Positions 7,053-58,788 of a stretch of DNA of 64,000 nucleotides are shown piece after piece. Under the pieces are notes generated by a model. That model did not search any database and was not told the origin of the DNA. It saw nothing but the letters and a program-made list of their open reading frames with translations. The translations under genes and the position numbers were made by a program. Position 1 is the first letter of the stretch; each line of letters starts with the position of its first letter. Source of the DNA: Escherichia coli (GTDB lineage Bacteria; Pseudomonadota; Gammaproteobacteria; Enterobacterales; Enterobacteriaceae); NCBI RefSeq assembly GCF_030013595.1, contig NZ_CP122768.1; one strand, 5' to 3'.

Positions 7053-8363
7053 ATGTTTGATTCGACTTTAAATCCGTTATGGCAGCGTTACATCCTCGCC
7101 GTTCAGGAGGAGGTAAAACCGGCGCTGGGGTGTACTGAACCGATTTCACTGGCGCTGGCAGCGGCGGTTGCTGCGGCTGAACTGGAAGGTCCGGTTGAAC
7201 GTGTAGAAGCCTGGGTTTCGCCAAATCTGATGAAGAACGGTCTGGGCGTCACCGTTCCCGGCACGGGAATGGTGGGGCTGCCGATTGCGGCGGCGCTGGG
7301 AGCGTTAGGTGGAAATGCTAACGCCGGGCTGGAAGTGCTGAAAGATGCAACTGCGCAGGCAATTGCCGATGCCAAAGCACTGCTGGCGGCGGGGAAAGTC
7401 TCAGTTAAGATCCAGGAACCTTGCGATGAAATCCTCTTCTCACGCGCCAAAGTCTGGAACGGTGAGAAGTGGGCGTGTGTCACCATTGTCGGCGGGCATA
7501 CCAACATTGTGCATATTGAGACGCACAATGGTGTGGTGTTTACCCAGCAGGCGTGTGTGACAGAGGGCGAGCAAGAGTCGCCGCTGACGGTGCTTTCCAG
7601 GACGACGCTGGCTGAGATCCTGAAGTTCGTCAATGAAGTCCCGTTTGCGGCGATCCGCTTTATTCTCGATTCTGCGAAGTTAAATTGTGCGTTATCGCAG
7701 GAAGGTTTGAGCGGTAACTGGGGGCTGCATATTGGTGCGACGCTGGAAAAACAGTGCGCGCGCGGTTTGCTGGCGAAAGATCTCTCTTCATCCATTGTGA
7801 TTCGTACCAGCGCGGCATCCGATGCGCGTATGGGCGGCGCTACGCTTCCGGCAATGAGTAACTCCGGCTCGGGTAACCAGGGGATCACTGCAACAATGCC
7901 TGTGGTGGTGGTAGCAGAACACTTCGGGGCCGATGATGAACGGCTGGCGCGAGCGCTGATGCTTTCGCATTTGAGCGCGATTTACATCCATAACCAGTTA
8001 CCGCGTTTGTCTGCGCTTTGTGCCGCAACGACCGCAGCAATGGGGGCCGCCGCCGGGATGGCATGGCTGGTGGATGGGCGTTATGAAACCATCTCGATGG
8101 CGATCAGCAGTATGATCGGCGATGTCAGCGGCATGATTTGCGATGGTGCGTCGAACAGCTGCGCGATGAAGGTTTCGACCAGTGCTTCGGCTGCGTGGAA
8201 AGCGGTGTTAATGGCGCTGGATGATACCGCAGTGACCGGCAATGAAGGGATTGTGGCGCATGATGTTGAGCAGTCGATTGCCAACCTGTGTGCGTTAGCA
8301 AGCCATTCGATGCAGCAAACGGATCGGCAGATTATCGAGATTATGGCGAGCAAGGCCAGATAA
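7053..8363 (+). CDS. cyuA: cysteine desulfidase YhaM/CyuA
   Basis: 436-aa ORF recognised as YhaM (UPF0597). Confidence 0.9.
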
Positions 8364-8383
8364 ACGCCAGGTTTTGGGTAACG

Positions 8384-8402
8384 TGCCGGATGCGATGCTG
8401 GC
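8384..8402. repeat. left half of a REP palindromic unit split by the IS
   Basis: TGCCGGATGCGATGCTGGC. It continues as TGGCGCGTCTTATCTGGCCTAC at 9835. Confidence 0.8.
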
Positions 8403-8444
8403 TGAACTGCACCCCAAATGTTGGACATAATCTGACATCTGAAG

Positions 8445-8975
8445 GTGCAGTTTATGAAACATTCATTTGAAGTAAAACTTGCCGCTGTAAATCATTACCT
8501 GGCTGGTCATGCAGGCATCATTTCTACGGCAAAACTCTTTCAACTTTCTCACACCAGCCTCTCACACTGGATTAATCTTTTTCTTCTTCACGGTCCTCGT
8601 GCACTGGATTGCAGACACAAGCGTAGCTATTCTCCTGAAGATAAACTTTGCGTGGTTCTTTATGCTCTCGGGCATTCTGAGTCTCTACCCCGGGTAGCTG
8701 CCCGGTTTAACATTCCCAGCCACAACACGGTTAAAAACTGGATAAAAGGCTACCGCAAATCTGGTAATGAGGCCTTTATCAGGCGCAGGAAGGAGAAAAG
8801 CATGACCCGTTCTGATGATACCCATGAAAACGAGGCAAACATGACGCCGGAAGAGATGAAGAATGAGCTGCGTTATCTTCGCGCAGAAAATGCATATCTG
8901 AAAGCCATGCAGGAGCATCTCCTGGAAAAAAAGCGCCAGGAGCTGGAGAAAAAACGAAAGTCATCCGGAGCCTGA
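8445..8975 (+). CDS. IS3-family transposase OrfA (HTH, leucine-zipper-like C-terminus)
   Basis: 176-aa ORF. The coiled-coil-like C-terminus LRAENAYLKAMQEHLLEKKRQELEKK is typical of IS3 OrfA. Confidence 0.88.
   Translation: MQFMKHSFEVKLAAVNHYLAGHAGIISTAKLFQLSHTSLSHWINLFLLHGPRALDCRHKRSYSPEDKLCVVLYALGHSESLPRVAARFNIPSHNTVKNWIKGYRKSGNEAFIRRRKEKSMTRSDDTHENEANMTPEEMKNELRYLRAENAYLKAMQEHLLEKKRQELEKKRKSSGA
8927..8933 (+). other. programmed -1 ribosomal frameshift heptamer A AAA AAG
   Basis: The heptamer is in the orfA zero frame (codons AAA AAG). The -1 frame is open from here into orfB, reading KKAPGAGEKTKVIRSLRCGH...GLARSTLYYQL. Confidence 0.8.
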
Positions 8976-50390: not shown

Positions 50391-50467
50391 ATGTCTGGCC
50401 CTGCTGTCTCTTAATTGGTTGTGTAATTAATTGAAATTAAACAGGTAAATGCAATTTATTTTTTATC

Positions 50468-50489
50468 GATATGCCTTTTTGTATGCCTA
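50468..50489. repeat. 22-nt repeat GATATGCCTTTTTGTATGCCTA (distal island end)
   Basis: 20/22 identical, in direct orientation, to 58569-58590 next to int. Candidate integrase arm-type sites. Confidence 0.6.
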
Positions 50490-50916
50490 TTGGGAAAAAC
50501 ACGCTTTCTTCAACAGGGAATAAAAGCCGCTTTTATGGTGTTTTGAAACGGGTTTTAAAATGGCGCTCGTGGTGCTCTCGGGCACTCAATGGCGCTCTGT
50601 GATGTGGCTGGTGGTATGTGGCCGCCATGCATAATGGGGCTGATTTTGTTCATGGCCCGGCAGCGGGTGAGCATTTTTTACCATATTCAGGGTAAAAATG
50701 GGCGAAAAAGTTCATTTCTGGCATGGCCTGAAATGCCACGCAGCCCGCGCCGCGTGTGCTCTTGCCGGGGAAAACGGCGCGGAATAATGACCGCCACCCC
50801 ACCTTATGGCGGGCAGTCCCACGAAATCCCGGTTATTTCCGTTTATTCCCGGATTAATCCCGCCTTCTCCCGCATTCTCCCGGCTGTTCCCGGAATTAAT
50901 CGCCGTGGGGTGGTGG

Positions 50917-51207
50917 TTATCTGGTGTGGTCGTAGTTCTGCCGTAGTCGTTCACCCTCAGCGCAATGACGCGGTTTTTTAACGCCGCTGGTAACGCAACG
51001 CGGGCAGGTCATGACGTGGCTGATATACGCATCACGGGCAGCCAGCCACGTCGCTGACGGGGCGCACATATCCGCCAGCGCCTGGCCGTTGCTGGTGGTG
51101 TTGTCTTCCGGCCATGTTTCGGGCTGGTGCGCTTCCGGTAAATCCGGTGCAGGTAATGCCCGGATAAACTCACACAATGCATCCGGCAGGCTGAATAACT
51201 TATGCAT
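50917..51207 (-). CDS. hypothetical 96-aa ORF (doubtful)
   Basis: ATG start but no obvious SD. Shares a ~29-nt patch with the helicase gene. Contains CPRC...HC. Confidence 0.3.
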   Translation of the reverse strand: MHKLFSLPDALCEFIRALPAPDLPEAHQPETWPEDNTTSNGQALADMCAPSATWLAARDAYISHVMTCPRCVTSGVKKPRHCAEGERLRQNYDHTR

Positions 51208-51630
51208 AAATCTGATGTTCTGAATCGCTGAAAACGTGCGTTTTATGGCGTTTTTTCGTGATTTCTGCGTGTTCTGATGTGCTCATTTCGCTGTATCCCT
51301 TGTGTGGCGCGGGCTGCGCGTGTGTTTCGGTGTTCTTTTTTACCGCCAGAAAACGGTAATCAGGCATATAAACACGGCTGTAAGCCGCGCCGCGTCTGGC
51401 TTCGCGTGATTTTGTGCGTCAAAAAGTGCATTTTTGCCCTTAAAAAGCGTTATTCGTAATTCACTGGTAAATGCTCCGCAGGCCGCGCCATTGCTGGCCT
51501 TTTCGCTATTCTGTGTGGTTTTGCTGTTTAACCCGTTTTGCACACTAAAATTGCCTTGCATCCCGCGCCACGTAAGGGATTGCCGGGTTTTTATGTTGCG
51601 TTTTTTGCCGTGCGTAATATTGTGCAAGTT

Positions 51631-51871
51631 GGTGGGACTGGTGGGAACTGTGGGAACCGCCTAGAACCACGCGGCTTTCAGTGGTTCCCACCAGTTCCCA
51701 CGTTGGCTTTTTGTGGGAACCGTGGCGGTTATTTTTTGTTCTTTGCGGTTCCCACCAGTTCCCGCAGAGTTCCCACTCAAAAACGAACAATAATCATACT
51801 GATGGTTTTATTATTTACTGATTTATATATGTTTTATTTTTACGGTTCCCACAGTTCCCACCAGTCCCACC
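51631..51871. repeat. iteron cluster, the putative island replication origin
   Basis: 12 copies of GTGGGAAC/GTTCCCAC (three degenerate) at 9-11-bp spacing. Perfect 28-bp inverted repeat 51631-51658 / 51844-51871. An AT-rich stretch at 51777-51843. Lies directly 3' of the helicase gene. Confidence 0.7.
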
Positions 51872-51906
51872 ACTTTTTCAGTTTTTAAAAACGCAATTTT
51901 TGTGAA

Positions 51907-53745
51907 TTATTCATCAATTGCGAATAACAATGCATTCTGGCCGATGGCGTAAACGCGGTGTTTCTCCCCGTTAACGGAAACGCGTTTTGTGTATCGGCGT
52001 TTCCCGTCCGTGTCGCGGTCAACAATCGCGCCAGCATCGTCAAGACTGGCCGCTATGCGTTTCAGGTCGTAGCCGCTGGCCGCCTCACATAGTGCTTCCG
52101 GTAAAAACCAGTAAACCCGCTCGCCGTTGCTCCCCGGTCGCCACCATCCGGCGCGGGTGCTTACTGGTTCGCTGTATGTGCTGCCCCCTTCAAAGCGTGA
52201 AGCATGGCGGGCGATAAACCCCGCGACGGCCCGGAGTATTTTCACGTCCTCCGATTGCCCCCGCCCACGATAGTCCGCCCACGCATCAAACATCGCTTTC
52301 ACTGCCTCCAGTGCTTCGCCCTGTTTCCACGGCAGAATCCCGGCAGTTATCGCCATTTCCCCGGCCAGTGCGCACAGTGTGAAACGCGCGGCGGCGCGTG
52401 CCTCCTGTCCGGTGCTTACGGGGAATTGTTCGCGCAGTATGGCGTACATATCCGCCAGCGTCTGGCCGTTGCTGTCGGTGCTGGTGGTGTCACTTTCATT
52501 GCGGGAAATCAGCCAGCGCACAAACTCCGGCCCGGCGTGGCCGTAATGGGTAGCCGCATTACCGCGCAGTGTTTCGGCAAATTTCCGGCCTGCTCCCCGG
52601 CGTTCTGTGTCGTTGTCGGGGTTGTGGGGTAGTGCCATTCCGTGAAGACAGTCAAATGCCCCGTAAAGCCGCTGTGCCGGAATATCCAGTAACCGCATTT
52701 CCTGCCCGGCCTTGATGCGCTGGCCGCCGCTTTCCATGTGTTTACCCACGGTCATTTCCCCGGTGGAAATAATCATGGTGCGCCATGTGTTGACCGGGCG
52801 GGCCATGCCGGACACCTTGCCACGCTGACGGCCTGTTCCGTTGCCAAGCTGATAAATCAGCCCGCCAATATCTCTGGCCGGGGCTTCGCCAATTTCATCC
52901 AGTATCAGCGCGGTATCGTTCCGCATGGTTGCCAGCCCTTCAAGCCCGGTGCTGGTGGCGTTCCAGTTGCGTTTAAAGTTGCGGGGTTCTCCCCATACGC
53001 TACAGGCCACCAGCGCCCCCACGCTTTTCCCGCTGGAACTGTCGCCCATGAAATGAAATCCGCCGCTGTCCACATCAAGCAACCACAGCAACGGCCCGGC
53101 GAGCGATGCACACACGGCCAGCATGGTTACCGGGTTTCCCCGGCATAATGCGGCCACGTTGTCGCGCCAGCCCTCCGGCGTTCCTGCGGTGGCGTACTCC
53201 TGTGAGCCTGCTTCTGTTGACTGAAACACCACATCACCATCACCGATAACCCCGCCCGGCATGACAAACAGGGCCGGGGAGTGCCACCCGGTGGCCGTGG
53301 CCGCGAGCGCCCGGCGTTTTGGTGCTGACTCCATGATGTATTCAGTCAGTGCCTGCCGTTGTTTGTAGGGAATGGTAACGCCCATGCGTAGCAGTTCCTG
53401 CCGGAGTTCTCCGCCGTCTCCGGCGAGCATTTCCATCGGTGCGGCCCATTCCCGCCACTGGCCTGACGGCGTGAGAAAACGGAGTAATCGCCCGTAGTTT
53501 TCGTCTTTGCTGTCGCTGGTCATGGCGATGACCTCCAGCGGGGAACATATAAACGTGTCTGTGTTGGTTGAGTCGCGCACGCCGTGCCAGTAAAGGCCGG
53601 GTTTCAGTATCTGGCCGCCGTCCACCTGTACATGCTGCGAATAAGTGGCGTAGCCCGGACGCGCCGGGCTGACTTTGGGGTGTTTCTTGCGTGGTGGTTT
53701 TCTCTTCCCGGATGTGACCGGGGTTTTAGTGGTTGTCCGGGTCAT
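51907..53745 (-). CDS. DUF927-type / SF3-like replicative helicase
   Basis: 612 aa. Walker A GDSSSGKS and Walker B ALILDEIGE are visible. Its start overlaps the primase stop by 20 nt. Confidence 0.8.
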   Translation of the reverse strand: MTRTTTKTPVTSGKRKPPRKKHPKVSPARPGYATYSQHVQVDGGQILKPGLYWHGVRDSTNTDTFICSPLEVIAMTSDSKDENYGRLLRFLTPSGQWREWAAPMEMLAGDGGELRQELLRMGVTIPYKQRQALTEYIMESAPKRRALAATATGWHSPALFVMPGGVIGDGDVVFQSTEAGSQEYATAGTPEGWRDNVAALCRGNPVTMLAVCASLAGPLLWLLDVDSGGFHFMGDSSSGKSVGALVACSVWGEPRNFKRNWNATSTGLEGLATMRNDTALILDEIGEAPARDIGGLIYQLGNGTGRQRGKVSGMARPVNTWRTMIISTGEMTVGKHMESGGQRIKAGQEMRLLDIPAQRLYGAFDCLHGMALPHNPDNDTERRGAGRKFAETLRGNAATHYGHAGPEFVRWLISRNESDTTSTDSNGQTLADMYAILREQFPVSTGQEARAAARFTLCALAGEMAITAGILPWKQGEALEAVKAMFDAWADYRGRGQSEDVKILRAVAGFIARHASRFEGGSTYSEPVSTRAGWWRPGSNGERVYWFLPEALCEAASGYDLKRIAASLDDAGAIVDRDTDGKRRYTKRVSVNGEKHRVYAIGQNALLFAIDE

Positions 53746-54769
53746 GCTCCATTTCCCATAGCATCAAATCGTTAAAGTCGGAAAGGTCTGGTGATGCACC
53801 GGGCGGCCATTCCGGGAATGTGACGTAACACCCGGCCAGCAATGCGGCTTCGTTGGCTGCTCTGGAACCGGGGTTATCTTTTGATGCCCGGTCATCATCC
53901 CCGGCGATAACGAGAGATATGCGCGAGCCGTATCGCTCACGCAGCGCCATAGCCACATGTTTAAGGTTTCCCGCATTCATGGCACACACCACGGCCATGA
54001 CGTTCCAGTACTGGAGAAGGGCGGCCCCGGTGGCCCACCCCTCACACACGTAAACGTCATGTTCCGGCGCTTCCGGGGCCATCAGGTCAAAGCTCCCCAT
54101 AACATGGAAAGCCCCCTGCACCTGACCATCACGGAGAAACATTTTTCGACCGTCCGGGCTGATAATCTGCACGTTCACCACTTCGCCGCATACGTTGTAC
54201 AGCGGGACAAGCAAATCATTACCTGACTGATACAGATTGCCGGGCTGTAGCCGTTTTTTCATGAGATAGGGATGAGAAGGGTTTGCCACCTCCGCCCGGC
54301 CAAGCAACTCAAAGGCCCGGCAGGCGGTCAGTTTCTGGCGCTGGTGGCGCTGTTGCTGTTCCCGCTGGCGGAGTCTGGCCGCCTCCTGTTCTGCGGCCTG
54401 TACCCGCACCCGTTGCGCCTCCCGTTGTTCGCGGGTCATTACATCAGGTTTGCCCAGCGCGGGCAGGCACAGCCCCAGCCTGTCCGCCACAATACGGGCG
54501 GCATCAGTCTGCCGCACATTCCATAAATAAGCCCCCAGCGCCACAAGGTCGCCGCCGCTGTCCCCGGTGGCGAAGTCGTGCCAGCATCCGTCCACCAGCG
54601 AGACGGAAAAACTGCCCGCGTGACGGTCTGCACGCGTGGGGTTACGACACACCCATTCAGTGGCCTGCCGTTTACCTTCGGGCAGCCATTCGGGAACAAG
54701 GATTTCTGCATGTTGTGCCGCCACTGCGGCAACGCTACGGATTGCGTTAATCGTGGCTATGTCACGCAT
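53726..54769 (-). CDS. Toprim-domain DNA primase (P4 alpha / bacteriophage-type)
   Basis: 347 aa from the ATG at 54769 (MRDIATINAIRS...). Toprim-like VYVCEGWATGAAL and LVIAGDDD acidic motifs. The 397-aa ORF is an upstream extension. Confidence 0.75.
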   Translation of the reverse strand: MRDIATINAIRSVAAVAAQHAEILVPEWLPEGKRQATEWVCRNPTRADRHAGSFSVSLVDGCWHDFATGDSGGDLVALGAYLWNVRQTDAARIVADRLGLCLPALGKPDVMTREQREAQRVRVQAAEQEAARLRQREQQQRHQRQKLTACRAFELLGRAEVANPSHPYLMKKRLQPGNLYQSGNDLLVPLYNVCGEVVNVQIISPDGRKMFLRDGQVQGAFHVMGSFDLMAPEAPEHDVYVCEGWATGAALLQYWNVMAVVCAMNAGNLKHVAMALRERYGSRISLVIAGDDDRASKDNPGSRAANEAALLAGCYVTFPEWPPGASPDLSDFNDLMLWEMEHDPDNH

Positions 54770-55076
54770 GTTGCCCGTCCTCCCTGATTTCCCCGGTGCG
54801 GCAGCGCCAGTTATACGCCTCCACAACCTCACTGAATCCGGCCACAAGTTCAGCCGTAACAGCGATGGAATCGCCCAGGCTGCGTAGTTCATTTGGACCA
54901 AGAGCATTATTGTCGCCAATTACCGAAAGTAGCCGCCCTGTGCCAGCCAGCGCATCAAGCAGTTTGCGGGCGCAGTAATCCGCATCATCAAACATTGCGC
55001 GGGCTTCCTGTGCGTCTGCGTTTTTGATGGCCGCAACCAGTAGTTCAGGTATCCGGGTGTTATACATATCACGCAT
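54762..55076 (-). CDS. hypothetical 104-aa island protein
   Basis: Coupled at both ends through ATGCGTGA overlaps. Weak paralog of the 98-aa neighbour. Confidence 0.6.
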   Translation of the reverse strand: MRDMYNTRIPELLVAAIKNADAQEARAMFDDADYCARKLLDALAGTGRLLSVIGDNNALGPNELRSLGDSIAVTAELVAGFSEVVEAYNWRCRTGEIREDGQHA

Positions 55077-55365
55077 GGCTTACCTCCCCGGCCTGCTGGT
55101 CGTAACACTCCATCAGTTCGGCCATACAGCCAATGAGGGCAGGGGCTGTCTGTAGAAATCCGGCTAACTGGCAGATCTCGTCTCTGGAATAGGTGATGGG
55201 GTTTTCGCGTAACTGGCTTTCCTCCAGTGCCTTACCAACAAAGGCAATCCCCGCAAGTAAATTCACTCTGTGCCAGTCTGCATCAACGCGCAGACTCCAG
55301 CGGCTTTCTTCGTCCGGCATACTGCTCATGGCGGCTTTCATTGACTCACGCAGACAATCACGCAT
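55069..55365 (-). CDS. hypothetical 98-aa island protein
   Basis: Starts at the ATG at 55365 (MRDCLRESMKAAMS...), overlapping the upstream stop by 8 nt. Confidence 0.6.
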   Translation of the reverse strand: MRDCLRESMKAAMSSMPDEESRWSLRVDADWHRVNLLAGIAFVGKALEESQLRENPITYSRDEICQLAGFLQTAPALIGCMAELMECYDQQAGEVSHA

Positions 55366-55555
55366 GACGCACCCCCTGAGCCGGAACGCGGCCAGCAAAC
55401 AGCAACACAAAATCACGCGCCAGCATACGGCGGGCGGTTGTTTCATCGGGTGCGTTGACGGATTCGCGGTGTGGGCGGTCGTTCAGGTCGGAACGGCGAA
55501 CAGCCAGAAAGTGAAAGGTAAATTCAGGGTGTAACGGGGTTGGGGTCGTAGCCAT
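55358..55555 (-). CDS. hypothetical 65-aa island protein
   Basis: The ATG at 55555 is preceded by a strong AAGGAGG RBS. Begins MATTPTPLHPEFTFHFLAVRR... Confidence 0.65.
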   Translation of the reverse strand: MATTPTPLHPEFTFHFLAVRRSDLNDRPHRESVNAPDETTARRMLARDFVLLFAGRVPAQGVRHA

Positions 55556-55746
55556 TCTGGCAGCCTCCTTTTGCAAATTTAAGGAGTCACCGCCTGAGTT
55601 CCTACACTCATAAGGGGCGGTGACGCTGGCAGGGGTAGGAATACCGGCGCAAAAGGAAACCGGCCAGCCTTTCGGCTGCCCCACCAGCGCCACCATAGAT
55701 ACAGTGCGGGTCTTGCCGCTGTGCATGGGTGCGCGATGGCACGACA

Positions 55747-55775
55747 CAAAAAAAGACGCTGGGCGCGTCTGTGTC
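55747..55775 (-). terminator. intrinsic terminator within the alpA-to-replication-module spacer
   Basis: The minus strand reads GACGC-GCCCA-GCGUC followed by U7. Confidence 0.75.
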
Positions 55776-55981
55776 GCCTTTTGCTCATTAAACGGGTTCC
55801 TACGCCCGGCTGGTGGATTTACACCAGCGGGGGAAATATAACGCCCACCAGCGATGGCAGGCAAGCAATATTTGCGGTTGCCGCCCATCCCGTGGGGCGT
55901 GTGGTGGTTGTTTTGGGCGTGAGAACGCCCCGGCCCTGTTACGGGCCTTTCTGGCATTTTCATAATGATTATCGCGGTTGG
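55776..55981 (-). ncRNA. candidate structured leader or ncRNA between the alpA stop and the terminator
   Basis: Successive hairpins: GGCCC/GGGCC, GGGCGT-GAGA-ACGCCC, ACGCCCAC...GTGGGGCGT, GCTGGTG...CACCAGC. No convincing ORF or RBS. Bounded by an intrinsic terminator. Confidence 0.35.
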
Positions 55982-56236
55982 TTAGTGGCTGGTGGGTTCT
56001 TTGTTTTTTTGCGCTCTGGCGATAATTTCTGCCATTACGTTATTGCGTTCCTCCACGCGGGCCGCAAGCCATGCATTAACTTCGGATTCAAACCATCCAA
56101 CGCGGCGCAGCCCGCGACGAAAGCCGGGGATAAATTCGCCAGCCCGAATCATGTCGTCAATGCTGGTAGTGGAACGAAGGCGCAGACGCGCAGCAACCTC
56201 GCGTTTGGTGAGGATTTTATCTTGTGTGGTGTCCAT
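55982..56236 (-). CDS. alpA: AlpA/MerR-type (HTH_17) phage regulatory protein
   Basis: 84 aa from the ATG at 56236 with an AAGAGG RBS. ILTKREVAARLRLRSTTSIDDMIRAGEFIPG...WFESEVNAWL is the typical AlpA pattern. Confidence 0.8.
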   Translation of the reverse strand: MDTTQDKILTKREVAARLRLRSTTSIDDMIRAGEFIPGFRRGLRRVGWFESEVNAWLAARVEERNNVMAEIIARAQKNKEPTSH

Positions 56237-56312
56237 GATATTTCGCCTCTTAATTGTATTAATTGGCCCTAACTGGCCATAACAATATGGAAGCACAAGA
56301 AGGCGTGAAATT

Positions 56313-56348
56313 GCCGGACATGTCCATCAGATGGCTGACATGTCCGGC
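56313..56348. promoter_or_regulatory. perfect 12-bp inverted repeat GCCGGACATGTC-N12-GACATGTCCGGC, an operator or a terminator
   Basis: Lies between the stop of the 292-aa gene and the alpA promoter region. Confidence 0.5.
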
Positions 56349-56369
56349 GTATACTCATTCGTGAATTGA

Positions 56370-57248
56370 CTAATCAACCTTAAACCAGCGTCGCATGGTT
56401 TTTTGTGAGGGCAGAGATAAACCAGCTTTGCAAAAATCGTTTTCTAATTCTGTTGGCTGGCCCTTGGTTTTGTCTTCTCTTACATGAAGCCATGGTTTGC
56501 CTCGCTTCGTTTCATCCTTGTAATACAGATAAAGCAAATCATCCACAAAAGCAGGCAGTGCGCTTCTTGGGTCTGGTTGTGTCGTCGGTGATGGTAGTTT
56601 TTTGGTTATGCACCCCATTAACATCCCGTTAGCGCAATCTCTCCCGCCATCCTTAAGGATTTCGATTTCTTCGGCGGTAATAAACAGGTCATCAATGCTT
56701 ACATCGAGTGGACTGGAATCAAAAGTAATCATCGGGCTGAGGGAATAATCGTCACCGTCAGTGTTCATTGTCCTTGGCTTTCCAAGAGAAAAACGAGCCG
56801 ATGACTTTCCATATTTTACAAAATCATAAAAAGGCATGGATTTGGTCAGGTTGCATATGGACATTAACCCTTCTATGGTCAAGTACCTGTATCCCATTAA
56901 AGGTATTTGGTTTTTCGGAATACCTCTGGGACGTTCTTCACTGATAAACAGAATTGCTGTTGTGACTTCAAAATCTCCCGCGCTATATGGTGTATAGACG
57001 GTAAATGGTAGCTGACACAGTGAATCGCCAAGCGGTTTAAATAAAACATACTTATCAGTTGATTTAGTTTCATAATGGTTAAACAGGTCAATTTCAGCCC
57101 GCCACCTTCCTGATATATGTGTACAAATCTCCAGCATTCCTATGTCAGCAAAATGAAGCAAATCATCAACACTGCACTTATTGGAGTTTGCAGTCAGATA
57201 ACTGGCCGCATCGCGTAGTGAGTAAAACAATCTTTTAGGTAATGCCAT
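56370..57248 (-). CDS. orphan 292-aa protein in the int-alpA cargo slot, function unknown
   Basis: The ATG at 57248 lies 1 nt after the int TAA (TAATATG). AT-rich compared with the rest of the island. Only HTH-like patterns at the two termini are recognisable by eye. Confidence 0.75.
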   Translation of the reverse strand: MALPKRLFYSLRDAASYLTANSNKCSVDDLLHFADIGMLEICTHISGRWRAEIDLFNHYETKSTDKYVLFKPLGDSLCQLPFTVYTPYSAGDFEVTTAILFISEERPRGIPKNQIPLMGYRYLTIEGLMSICNLTKSMPFYDFVKYGKSSARFSLGKPRTMNTDGDDYSLSPMITFDSSPLDVSIDDLFITAEEIEILKDGGRDCANGMLMGCITKKLPSPTTQPDPRSALPAFVDDLLYLYYKDETKRGKPWLHVREDKTKGQPTELENDFCKAGLSLPSQKTMRRWFKVD

Positions 57249-57249
57249 A

Positions 57250-58524
57250 TTATTCACCAACCACTTTTAAGCCACGAAAACCGCCAGTTGCACTAAGGCT
57301 TCCGGTTGCTGCCTGTTCGATAAAATCACCCCACCACGCCATCAGTGGGCGGCGTTGCTCCAGATATGTGGAGCGATTGTAAGCCCGTCTCACCGTGTCC
57401 TTATCCAGATGGGAAAGCGCAGCCTCTATTACATCTGGCGGGAACCCCTGTTCATTAAGCGCCGTACTTGCTACAGAGCGTAAACCATGCGCCACCAGCT
57501 TTCCGGTATACCCCATGCGCCTGATAGCGGCGTTTGCGGTCTGTTGATGCATCCCACGCATGGGGTCGCTGTTATGTGGAAAAACAAACTTTCGATGCCC
57601 GCTGATTGGGCGCATGGCTTCAAGAATGGCCATTGCCTGATTATTCAGGGGGACAATGTGCTCCCTTCGTTGTTTTAGTCGCCCGGCTGATATACGCCAC
57701 ACTCTGGCATCTGCATCTATCTCGCTCCACTGTGCCCCGGCTGCCTCGCATGGGCGGCAAATAGTTAATAATTGCCATTCAATAACAAGACGCGTTTGAA
57801 GTTCTGCGCGAGCCGTTGCCAGTTTTTGCATAAATTCCGGCAACTCATCAGGCCTGATTGTTGGCATGTGTTTAACTACAGGTGGGTTGAATGCCTTGCT
57901 GATTTGAGCGGCGGGATTAGCTGGAATTAATCCAATATTCACTGCGTAATACATAACCTCATTGATTCTTTGTGCCAGCCGTCGCACCGTATCCGCTTTG
58001 CCCTGTGCTGATACAGGTTTCAGGGCTTCGATAAAATCCCGTGCAACCAGTTCTGTGATTGGGCGATGGCCTATGGGTGGCAGCACATGACGCTCAAGAG
58101 AACGCCATATATCACGGAGTGTATTTGCCGCCAGATTCTGGCCGCGCTTTACTTCAAACCATTCTTCGGCCACGCGCTGAAATGTGTTTAATCGCCGTAT
58201 TTCATCATCCCGGCGTTGTTTTTCCCTGTGTTCTTTGGGGTCAGTTCCATTTGCGACCAGTGAGCGATACTCGTCTTTAATCCTGCGAGCATCGGCAATG
58301 CTGATTTCGGGATATGCACCAAGGCTTAACATTGCCCGTTTTTTGGTGTGTGGCTTGTAGTACCGGAACCGCCATAAGGCTGATGCGCTACCCGCTTTCA
58401 CAACTAACTCCAGCCCATCGCCATCCGTGATAAATAAATCCTTCTCGGCGGTGAGCGATTTCTTCTGCAAACTTTTAATCGTCGCTGGTGTAAGTAATTT
58501 TGTGTTTTTGGCCACTGGTTGCAT
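57250..58524 (-). CDS. int: P4-type tyrosine integrase
   Basis: 424 aa. N-terminal arm-binding-like region (LTPATIKSL...GLELVVKAGSASALWRFRY). C-terminal AHGLRS...HLDKDTVRRAYNRSTY catalytic region. Adjacent to a tRNA. Confidence 0.92.
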   Translation of the reverse strand: MQPVAKNTKLLTPATIKSLQKKSLTAEKDLFITDGDGLELVVKAGSASALWRFRYYKPHTKKRAMLSLGAYPEISIADARRIKDEYRSLVANGTDPKEHREKQRRDDEIRRLNTFQRVAEEWFEVKRGQNLAANTLRDIWRSLERHVLPPIGHRPITELVARDFIEALKPVSAQGKADTVRRLAQRINEVMYYAVNIGLIPANPAAQISKAFNPPVVKHMPTIRPDELPEFMQKLATARAELQTRLVIEWQLLTICRPCEAAGAQWSEIDADARVWRISAGRLKQRREHIVPLNNQAMAILEAMRPISGHRKFVFPHNSDPMRGMHQQTANAAIRRMGYTGKLVAHGLRSVASTALNEQGFPPDVIEAALSHLDKDTVRRAYNRSTYLEQRRPLMAWWGDFIEQAATGSLSATGGFRGLKVVGE

Positions 58525-58568
58525 CCCGAAACAGGTTTAAGGCATACGAGATTGCTTCTGTTTGTGAG

Positions 58569-58590
58569 GATATGCCTTGATGTATGCCTA
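58569..58590. repeat. 22-nt repeat GATATGCCTTGATGTATGCCTA (int-proximal end)
   Basis: Partner of 50468-50489. An inverted AGGCATA copy lies at ~58547. Confidence 0.6.
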
Positions 58591-58712
58591 AAGAATCTGG
58601 CTTATACCTTAGCAAACTGGCCAAAACTGGACAATAAAAAACCCGCAAGCCTTGTGTGGCGCGGGTTTCGTCTGATTAACTGGCCGTATCTGATACTAAC
58701 CGAATGTCAATT

Positions 58713-58788
58713 TGGTGGCCCCTGCTGGACTTGAACCAGCGACCAAGCGATTATGAGTCGCCTGCTCTAACCACTGAGCTAAGGGGCC
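58713..58788 (-). tRNA. ileX: tRNA-Ile2 (anticodon CAU, lysidine-modified), ileX
   Basis: 76 nt: GGCCCCTTAGCTCAGTGGTTAGAGCAGGCGACTCATAATCGCTTGGTCGCTGGTTCAAGTCCAGCAGGGGCCACCA. Cloverleaf arms and encoded CCA are present. Confidence 0.93.

Follow-up and report, generated by a model that had tools for sequence, protein, structure and literature searches.

A probable P4-type antisense-RNA immunity region, overlapped by an eta-like reading frame, between alpA and the replication genes of an Escherichia coli island

We analyzed a 64,000-nucleotide stretch of Escherichia coli DNA (RefSeq assembly GCF_030013595.1, contig NZ_CP122768.1; hereafter the window, in whose coordinates all positions are given), and in it the 426-bp spacer (55556-55981) that separates an alpA-type gene from the replication genes of a small genomic island. 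All of the leader elements described below are on the minus strand. The spacer very probably serves a P4-related island, inserted at a tRNA gene, as its immunity region and early leader, as a part-by-part homologue of the PLE-seqA-t1-cI-seqC-kil/eta region of satellite phage P4 and of the P1-type c4-icd region, and works by the mechanism set out below. What was computed here is which parts are present, what they are homologous to, how they can pair and how they co-vary; the way in which they would operate is carried over by analogy from P4, P1 and Gifsy-1.

The Rfam scan gave two matches in the spacer, both above the gathering scores: C4 (RF01695) at 55613-55700, as a full-length match to the model (79.6 bits; gathering score, 45; E = 8.8e-15), and isrK (RF01394) at 55749-55828 (60.7 bits; gathering score, 50). 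The C4 RNA, of the P4 CI antisense type, is composed of a 17-bp outer stem (55679-55695 with 55618-55634) and hairpin 1 (55665-55678), both assigned from the Rfam model and covariation, and of hairpin 2 (55643-55664, from the Rfam model), in the loop of which lies the element b' UCCUUUUGC (55649-55657). A second element, a' (UUCCUAC, 55635-55641), is single-stranded and was assigned from its complementarity to the sites a1 and a2 described below. For the comparative analysis, relatives were 120 viral-contig loci retrieved with a DNA pattern for C4 hairpin 2; a search with the Icd protein yielded one locus in genome contigs and three loci in viral contigs. Note that the pattern fixed hairpin 2 together with the UCCU of b'; those columns carry no information, and hairpin 2 is invariant for this reason. 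Among 60 distinct sequences, 96.6% of the cells in the C4 helices were paired and 18 of the 27 pairs were changed on both sides, which was reached in none of 500 shuffles, and only 33-48% were paired in the slid controls.

The antisense elements have two targets each. The element a' is complementary to GUAGGAA, which occurs at a1 (55797-55803) and again at a2 (55599-55605), and b' is complementary to b1 GCAAAAGG (55777-55784) and to b2 GCAAAAGGA (55566-55574). The match of b' to b2 is a perfect 9-nt complement, and b2 overlaps the Shine-Dalgarno sequence AAGGAGG (55564-55570) of the kil/icd gene, whose start codon is at 55553-55555 (whole target region, 55553-55574). In 83 loci, a'/a1/a2 and b'/b1/b2 were found to covary as triplets at constant positions, and the complementary runs averaged 6.9-8.6 nt within the own locus versus 4.0-5.4 nt when combined with other loci. 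Judged from the aligned sequences, this pattern is the signature of a two-target antisense RNA with many immunity specificities.

The a and b elements also reassort among the relatives (L005, L011, L028, L046, L077, L102 and other viral-contig loci): GUAGGAA as a was found with five different b sequences, and CUUCAAGG as b with three different a sequences. The exact a and b pair of this island was present in just one IMG/VR contig, the 8.3-kb L076, and evidence for a matching helper was not obtained. As a separate observation, in the minimum-free-energy fold UCCUU (55581-55585) is paired with AAGGA (55566-55570) of the Shine-Dalgarno sequence and b2, as a local hairpin that hides the ribosome-binding site; its conservation is doubtful because P4 has a different small hairpin there.

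The same parts were found in P4. When 55540-55860 was searched against phage genomes with blastn, matches were obtained to the P1-like phages D6 and RCS47, phiKO2, Stx phages and P4, in which positions 8353-8676 (the old "cI/ash gene") align at 72.6% identity. In the Rfam scan of P4, C4 scored 74.9 bits at 8420-8507 and isrK scored 60.8 bits at 8615-8692; the two matches lie between ORF88/vis and the left-operon genes and are arranged and oriented as in the island. The base-by-base alignment takes in the -35 hexamer, the leader, the terminator, the antisense RNA, the ribosome-binding site and the 65-residue gene. Since the blastn alignment, the Rfam matches and the synteny are shared, the likeness to P4 is homology. 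An earlier note on this stretch, made from the letters alone, had proposed an RNA-based regulatory leader with an intrinsic terminator between alpA and the replication genes, which is supported, and had been reminded of the CI RNA of P4 while seeing no sequence similarity to it. The similarity exists, and a P4 CI-type immunity that would gate the replication genes is supported by the C4 and isrK matches, the P4 synteny and the covariation.

The promoter, leader and terminator upstream of the antisense RNA agree with this assignment. The promoter scan gave a sigma-70-like, PLE-like promoter at 55835-55864 (-35 TTGCCT, 55859-55864; -10 TATATT, 55835-55840; 18-nt spacing), which lies inside the eta-like reading frame described below, ends 7 nt ahead of the first base of the isrK model and has a predicted transcription start at about 55828. 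Its hexamers align with TTGCCT/TATAGT of P4, directly upstream of the P4 isrK match, which we take to be PLE, and promoter-like -35 and -10 sequences at the same distance from leader hairpin 1 are visible in nearly all of the relatives listed. Because this conserved promoter is directly upstream, the small RNA has, on in-silico evidence, a promoter of its own and is not, as the earlier note had allowed, a product of the alpA 3' untranslated region.

The seqA/IsrK-like leader RNA (55749-55828) begins with hairpin 1, GCUGGUG-UAAAUC-CACCAGC (55809-55828; sequence check and covariation), followed by hairpin 2 (55793-55808; covariation) with a1 in its loop and by b1, which is single-stranded and was assigned from its complementarity to b'. 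It ends at an intrinsic terminator (55748-55770; terminator scan), the homologue of P4 t1, with the stem AGACGC-GCCCA-GCGUCU (55754-55770) and U7 (55748-55754). In 60 sequences, 88.5% of the cells of the leader were paired and 15 of the 23 pairs were compensatory; none of 500 shuffles reached the paired percentage or the covariation score, and two reached the number of compensatory pairs. The leader helices were 91.7%, 99.6% and 100% paired, with compensatory changes (terminator stem: 100% paired, 3 of 5 pairs compensatory). An outer helix, GCGACAC (55771-55777) with GUGUCGU (55741-55747), was also observed to flank the terminator; its first base is the one with which b1 ends. At 69.7% paired, with compensatory changes in 4 of its 7 pairs, this helix is conserved only in part, and it could tie the occupancy of b1 to the folding of the terminator. 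The Rfam model c4-a1b1 (RF03163) matched 55789-55841 below its gathering score (38.6 versus 46.7 bits), as it did in P4 (44.1 bits), and the overlapping isrK model describes the leader better.

The leader match brings in a different logic, that of IsrK in Gifsy-1, in which the terminated leader (55749-55828) would act in trans as an activator or decoy, pairing with the C4-like segment or with free C4, opening the ribosome-binding site and turning the operon on. The score above the isrK gathering threshold and the complementarity of a1 and b1 to a' and b' of C4 speak for it, as does the Salmonella precedent, in which IsrK in trans raises the translation of the downstream ORFs (open reading frames) more than 100-fold (PMC4825925). 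However, the genes downstream in Gifsy-1 form an antirepressor cascade and not a set of replication genes, and the synteny of alpA/vis, eta/kil and primase in the island is of the P4 type, in which seqA is a target of CI-dependent termination. We thus regard the dominance of this logic as possible but unlikely; trans action of the IsrK type is itself compatible with P4-type immunity and could be an added layer.

The RNA elements are overlapped by an ORF of 201 residues (55358-55963; ORF list and Pfam Phage_ASH) that resembles P4 eta. It starts 18 nt past the alpA stop codon, in the frame of alpA, extends through the promoter, the two RNAs and the terminator, and has as its last part the 65-residue kil/icd-like gene (55358-55555), which was matched by NCBIfam NF033153 (Icd-like; 73.2 bits) and aligns with P4 kil. 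By analogy with P4, this 65-residue gene would be the first gene translated from the transcript of the internal promoter. Pfam PF10554 (Phage_ASH) was matched with 92.1 bits (cut-off, 26) by residues 42-148, corresponding to positions 1-107 of the 107 in the model, and the 199-residue eta frame of P4, which likewise ends as kil, was 42% identical (E = 3e-31). Among 46 distinct Icd/Kil-type loci, 34 had no stop codon in the kil frame from the leader 5' end to the kil ATG, versus 1 and 10 for the two remaining frames; the 10 are loci in which a 1-nt change in spacing puts this leader frame out of register with kil, one leader frame being stop-free in 44 of the 46 overall, and the open frame extends beyond the promoter in 33 loci. 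The differences in length between the leader start and the C4 start (55701-55828) were multiples of 3 (-27, 0, +12, +18, +30 and +57) in 47 of 49 loci. No third-codon-position excess was detected in 55556-55828 (49 sequences; diversity by codon position, 0.295, 0.314 and 0.314; p = 0.41), unlike the kil part, where the third position is in excess (0.436, 0.446 and 0.571; p = 8e-7). As far as the sequences tell, the eta frame is kept open and its peptide sequence is not constrained as such, and the Phage_ASH profile is largely the translation of conserved RNA.

The earlier note had called the spacer untranslated and the 201-residue ORF probably not coding. Neither description holds as it was worded, given that a conserved open frame homologous to P4 eta crosses the spacer. 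The note had also set translation and conservation of this ORF against the RNA interpretation; the frame proved to be conserved and the peptide unconstrained, and the RNA interpretation stands together with it, the two overlapping. A purely non-coding spacer, with the ORF as an artefact of RNA conservation and with either a small RNA from the alpA 3' untranslated region or an attenuator of read-through from alpA, would suit the ATG at 55963, which has no Shine-Dalgarno sequence, the passage of the ORF across the U7 terminator and the lack of a third-position excess. It is nevertheless very unlikely, considering the conserved promoter directly upstream of the small RNA, the single leader frame kept open with length changes in multiples of 3, and the homology to P4 eta, whose translation, with a regulatory effect, has been reported (PMC10111431).

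The opposite extreme, that the function lies with the Ash/Eta protein itself and that the RNA structures are incidental to it, draws on the full-length Phage_ASH match and on the RefSeq annotation of the ORF as a protein, and we find it scarcely credible: three RNA domains are kept paired by compensatory changes, the antisense elements covary with two target sites, and the leader part has no codon-position signature. The genetics of P4 agrees in that its immunity factor is an RNA. This factor has been described as an RNA processed from an untranslated transcript (PMC4825925).

The following course of events is proposed for the P4-type immunity region. The constitutive promoter (55864-55835) would start transcription near 55828, and the first 80 nt would form the IsrK/seqA-like RNA, with a1 in a hairpin loop and b1 single-stranded, ending at the terminator (55770-55748). 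Termination at t1 would leave a small RNA of about 80 nt, and the read-through transcript would hold the C4/CI RNA (55613-55700), which, as a tRNA-like structure of three helices, would by analogy be excised by RNase P and trimmed at its 3' end to a stable RNA of about 70-80 nt. The mature antisense RNA would pair with a1 and b1 through a' and b', enhancing termination at t1 (autoregulation), and would also pair with a2 and b2, blocking the translation of kil/icd, as proposed because b2 covers the kil/icd Shine-Dalgarno sequence. The untranslated transcript would then be stopped prematurely in and after kil, by Rho and/or at a t4-like site, and the primase and DUF927 helicase genes would stay silent; a second element of the same specificity would be repressed likewise, which would constitute immunity. 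When a regulated promoter before alpA fires, ribosomes would pass from alpA into the 201-residue eta frame across the leader, and their translation of eta would melt the RNA structures and shield the transcript from termination, turning on the replication genes despite immunity. In addition, the transcript of the 5' half of kil/icd (55410-55569) was observed to be rich in C and poor in G (GC skew of the plus strand, +0.24 to +0.39), a composition that is compatible with a Rho site like P4 timm and proves nothing.

Several points weigh against this interpretation. For processing, termination, Rho dependence and the translation of eta, the model relies entirely on P4, and what is said of t1, t4 and timm of P4 comes from secondary sources. 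The coupling of alpA to eta is less certain than in P4, because the eta ATG is placed 18 nt past the alpA stop codon, does not overlap it and is not preceded by a Shine-Dalgarno sequence. The conservation of the frame could stem in part from the shared ancestry of RNA-constrained sequences. Before alpA, no upstream promoter of the late type was identified, only a 12-nt inverted repeat (see below), and no match to P4 sid, delta, psu or epsilon was obtained when the 10 main ORFs of the island were compared with all P4 proteins with blastp.

The spacer also holds an alternative helix. The 9-bp stem of GUCACCGCC (55616-55624) with GGCGGUGAC (55586-55594) is 100% complementary and encloses an inner hairpin (55595-55610; covariation) with the target a2 in its loop. 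GUCACCGCC is the end of the 3' strand of the closing stem of C4, and GGCGGUGAC sits just past the a2 hairpin. In 54 sequences, the helix was 87.4% paired with 7 of 9 pairs compensatory, all 4 pairs of the inner a2 hairpin were compensatory, and the length of the stem averaged 7.1 nt within the own locus versus 5.4 nt with other loci. The 9-bp stem, which the earlier note had described without recognizing the main three-helix antisense RNA beside it (55613-55700), is thus real and conserved, and it is mutually exclusive with the base of the C4 stem. In P4, a CI-dependent terminator, t4, is located between cI and the Rho-dependent timm. The 9-bp helix followed by UCCUUAAAUUU is a candidate counterpart of t4. 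One might imagine a co-transcriptional switch: the helix (55586-55624) excludes the tRNA-like stem that RNase P would need, and each transcript would either release the mature antisense RNA or present a2 in a loop and stop at the t4-like site. If the a and b elements, which reassort freely among the relatives, are taken into account as well, the result would be an RNA 'barcode' in two parts, through which C4-bearing satellites and helper phages could sense or repress each other. We consider this reading, the switch included, rather improbable.

The hairpins, the terminator and the 9-bp stem named in the earlier note were all found on the minus strand where it had placed them (sequence check and terminator scan). 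The description of the spacer as highly structured holds for the whole 426 nt (-186.1 kcal/mol versus -153.0 +/- 5.8 for dinucleotide shuffles; z = -5.70), but the signal comes from 55556-55828. The z-scores of the segments were -4.27 for C4 (55613-55700), -3.97 for 55556-55628, -2.19 for the isrK-like segment (55749-55828) and -0.10 for the linker (55701-55748); in the segment past the alpA stop codon that holds two hairpins (55861-55981) it was -1.24, with 22 of 200 shuffles equally stable. The structural excess is local and confined to 55556-55828. Compensatory changes likewise support C4, isrK and the 9-bp stem and not the hairpins adjacent to alpA, namely GGCCC-GUAACA-GGGCC (55932-55947) and GGGCGU-UCUC-ACGCCC (55915-55930; both from the sequence check), which are identical in the two nearest relatives, L002 and L005, and missing from the other relatives and from P4. 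These hairpins (55915-55947) are lineage-specific, have no statistical or comparative support, and were rejected as functional RNA on the grounds of the z-score and of their conservation in near-identical relatives only. The long-range pairing of ACGCCCCAC (55892-55900) with GUGGGCGU (55841-55848) is imperfect (6 bp, a bulged C and 2 bp); as the ACGCCC/GGGCGU pairing it was likewise rejected as functional RNA, since it spans the promoter and is not more widely conserved. The linker from the terminator to the antisense RNA (55701-55747), with no excess structure, is the most variable segment (diversity, 0.47).

The island, about 8 kb in length and on the minus strand, adjoins a tRNA gene with the anticodon CAU (58713-58788; tRNA-Ile in the RefSeq annotation) and lies between mug/rpoD and nfeF. 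Along the direction of transcription it holds a tyrosine integrase (57250-58524; ORF list and profile search), a 296-residue ORF, the alpA-type gene, the 426-bp spacer, the 65-residue gene, two small ORFs, a Toprim primase and a DUF927 protein. The alpA-type gene (55982-56236; stop codon TAA, 55982-55984) encodes an 84-residue homologue of P4 vis (ORF88; 41% identity, E = 8e-13), and its matches to Pfam HTH_17 and Phage_AlpA are weak, both being under the curated cut-offs. A perfect 12-nt inverted repeat, GCCGGACATGTC / GACATGTCCGGC (56313-56324 and 56337-56348, with a 12-nt spacer), was observed in the interval that separates alpA from the 296-residue ORF. Its possible roles are those of an operator or of a component of the regulated (PLL-like) promoter required by the eta model. 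The far boundary of the island (attR) was not located, because the tRNA 3' end had no repeat of at least 15 nt elsewhere in the window (50400-58788 considered). E. coli cq9 carries the island in identical form. Of 5426 complete E. coli genomes, 172 contained related copies, and in 17 of these the match extended over at least 80% of the 1-kb query.

The two small genes that follow kil bear on whether the region belongs to the immI type of P1 and P7, in which C4 would control an antirepressor acting against the repressor of a helper or resident phage and not the replication genes of the island. The c4-icd arrangement is common to the P1-like phage D6, in which ant follows icd, and genes for products of 98 and 104 residues do follow kil here. 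These products, however, have no similarity to Ant, KilA, Bro or P4 epsilon (profile searches, and blastp for epsilon), and the next genes in the same orientation encode the Toprim primase and the DUF927 helicase, as in the P4 left operon; we give this explanation little probability. Returning to the P4 assignment, blastp matches between island and P4 proteins were confined to int (35% identity), vis (41%), eta/kil (42%) and the Toprim part of alpha (34%). Homologues of P4 epsilon, cnr and orf151 were not found among the small downstream ORFs, and genes for capsid, packaging or helper exploitation were not recognized between the DUF927 gene and nfeF. The P4-type status holds for the immunity module; the whole element is not established as a P4-like satellite.

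The locus is a further copy, predicted to be heteroimmune, of a system that has been described since the 1990s and is catalogued in Rfam, Pfam and NCBIfam, and its mechanism is already worked out in P4, P1/P7 and Gifsy-1. The consequences are thus practical and not conceptual. The correct annotation would consist of the kil/icd gene, the overlapping eta frame and two RNA genes. In RefSeq, the 201-residue frame is a 'host cell division inhibitor Icd-like protein' in E. coli cq9 (L001, 6338-6943) and an 'ash family protein, pseudogene' with a separate 65-residue Icd-like gene in E. coli STEC306 (L002, 3338-3943); the frame is intact in both, and the C4 and isrK RNAs are annotated in neither record. 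As for database content, Pfam Phage_ASH is largely translated conserved RNA. A specificity unlike that of P4 predicts which related elements co-reside with the island or are excluded by it, and some interest attaches to what the conserved alternative helix does and to the way in which a and b elements are reassorted.

Among known systems, the layout of int, alpA, Phage_ASH/eta (the 'Bro zone') and primase is like that of the phage-inducible chromosomal islands (PICIs) of Gram-negative bacteria and of helper-embedded PICIs, in which C4 and isrK matches inside the eta-like gene have already been reported (Mageeney et al. 2023, PMC10111431). Compared with those PICIs, the island is short (about 8 kb from the tRNA gene to nfeF), and no late or packaging genes were recognized in it. 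The equivalence of IsrK to P4 seqA and of C4 to the P4 CI RNA has been noted (PMC3632133; PMC4825925). In the IsrK locus of Gifsy-1 (isrK, orf45/STnc1160 and anrP; RF01394), as in the island, an RNA of 80 nt that folds into two hairpins and an intrinsic terminator has its own promoter. The long read-through transcript of Gifsy-1 carries a processed C4-like RNA, and its overlapping frame is conserved in nucleotides and variable in amino acids (PMC4825925). The short RNA of Gifsy-1 is described as activating in trans a cascade of antirepressor and AntQ by which growth is arrested (PMC4825925), whereas a satellite-type replication operon follows in the island.

The immI region of P1 and P7 has in common with the island the RNA family, its fold, the recognition by two elements, a' and b', on both sides, and the overlap of b2 with the site at which ribosomes bind an Icd-like gene. 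Phage D6, which is P1-like and has icd followed by ant, aligns with the island region at 75.8% identity. In P1 and P7, however, the antirepressor gene ant comes after icd, a feature that the island, with replication genes at that place, does not share.

P4 and the island have in common the order of parts (vis/alpA, PLE, seqA, t1, cI, seqC, kil and the replication genes). The eta frames, of 199 residues in P4 and 201 in the island, both start upstream of the internal promoter and end as the 65-residue kil, and in both the antisense elements are complementary to one upstream site and one downstream site at the kil ribosome-binding site. Of P4 eta it has been reported (PMC10111431, citing Forti et al. 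1999) that the frame begins ahead of the internal promoter and is coupled to that of the alpA homologue, that only transcripts from the late promoter upstream allow eta to be translated, and that this translation prevents termination. The island differs from P4 in that the eta start overlaps the vis stop codon in P4 and is 18 nt past the alpA stop codon here, in that the distance from t1 to cI is longer by about 57 nt in P4, in that P4 is without the approximately 75 nt with two hairpins that the island has past the stop codon of the vis/alpA gene, in the single alpha protein of P4 versus the separate Toprim primase and DUF927 protein, and in the absence of sid, delta, psu, epsilon and cII from the island. 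P4 also differs at all six recognition places (UUCUCAC with GUGAGAA, and CCUGUGAA with UUCACAGG). Because the specificity sequences differ in this way (a = GUAGGAA and b = GCAAAAGGA in the island; a = GUGAGAA and b = UUCACAGGA in P4), the island is predicted to be heteroimmune to P4.

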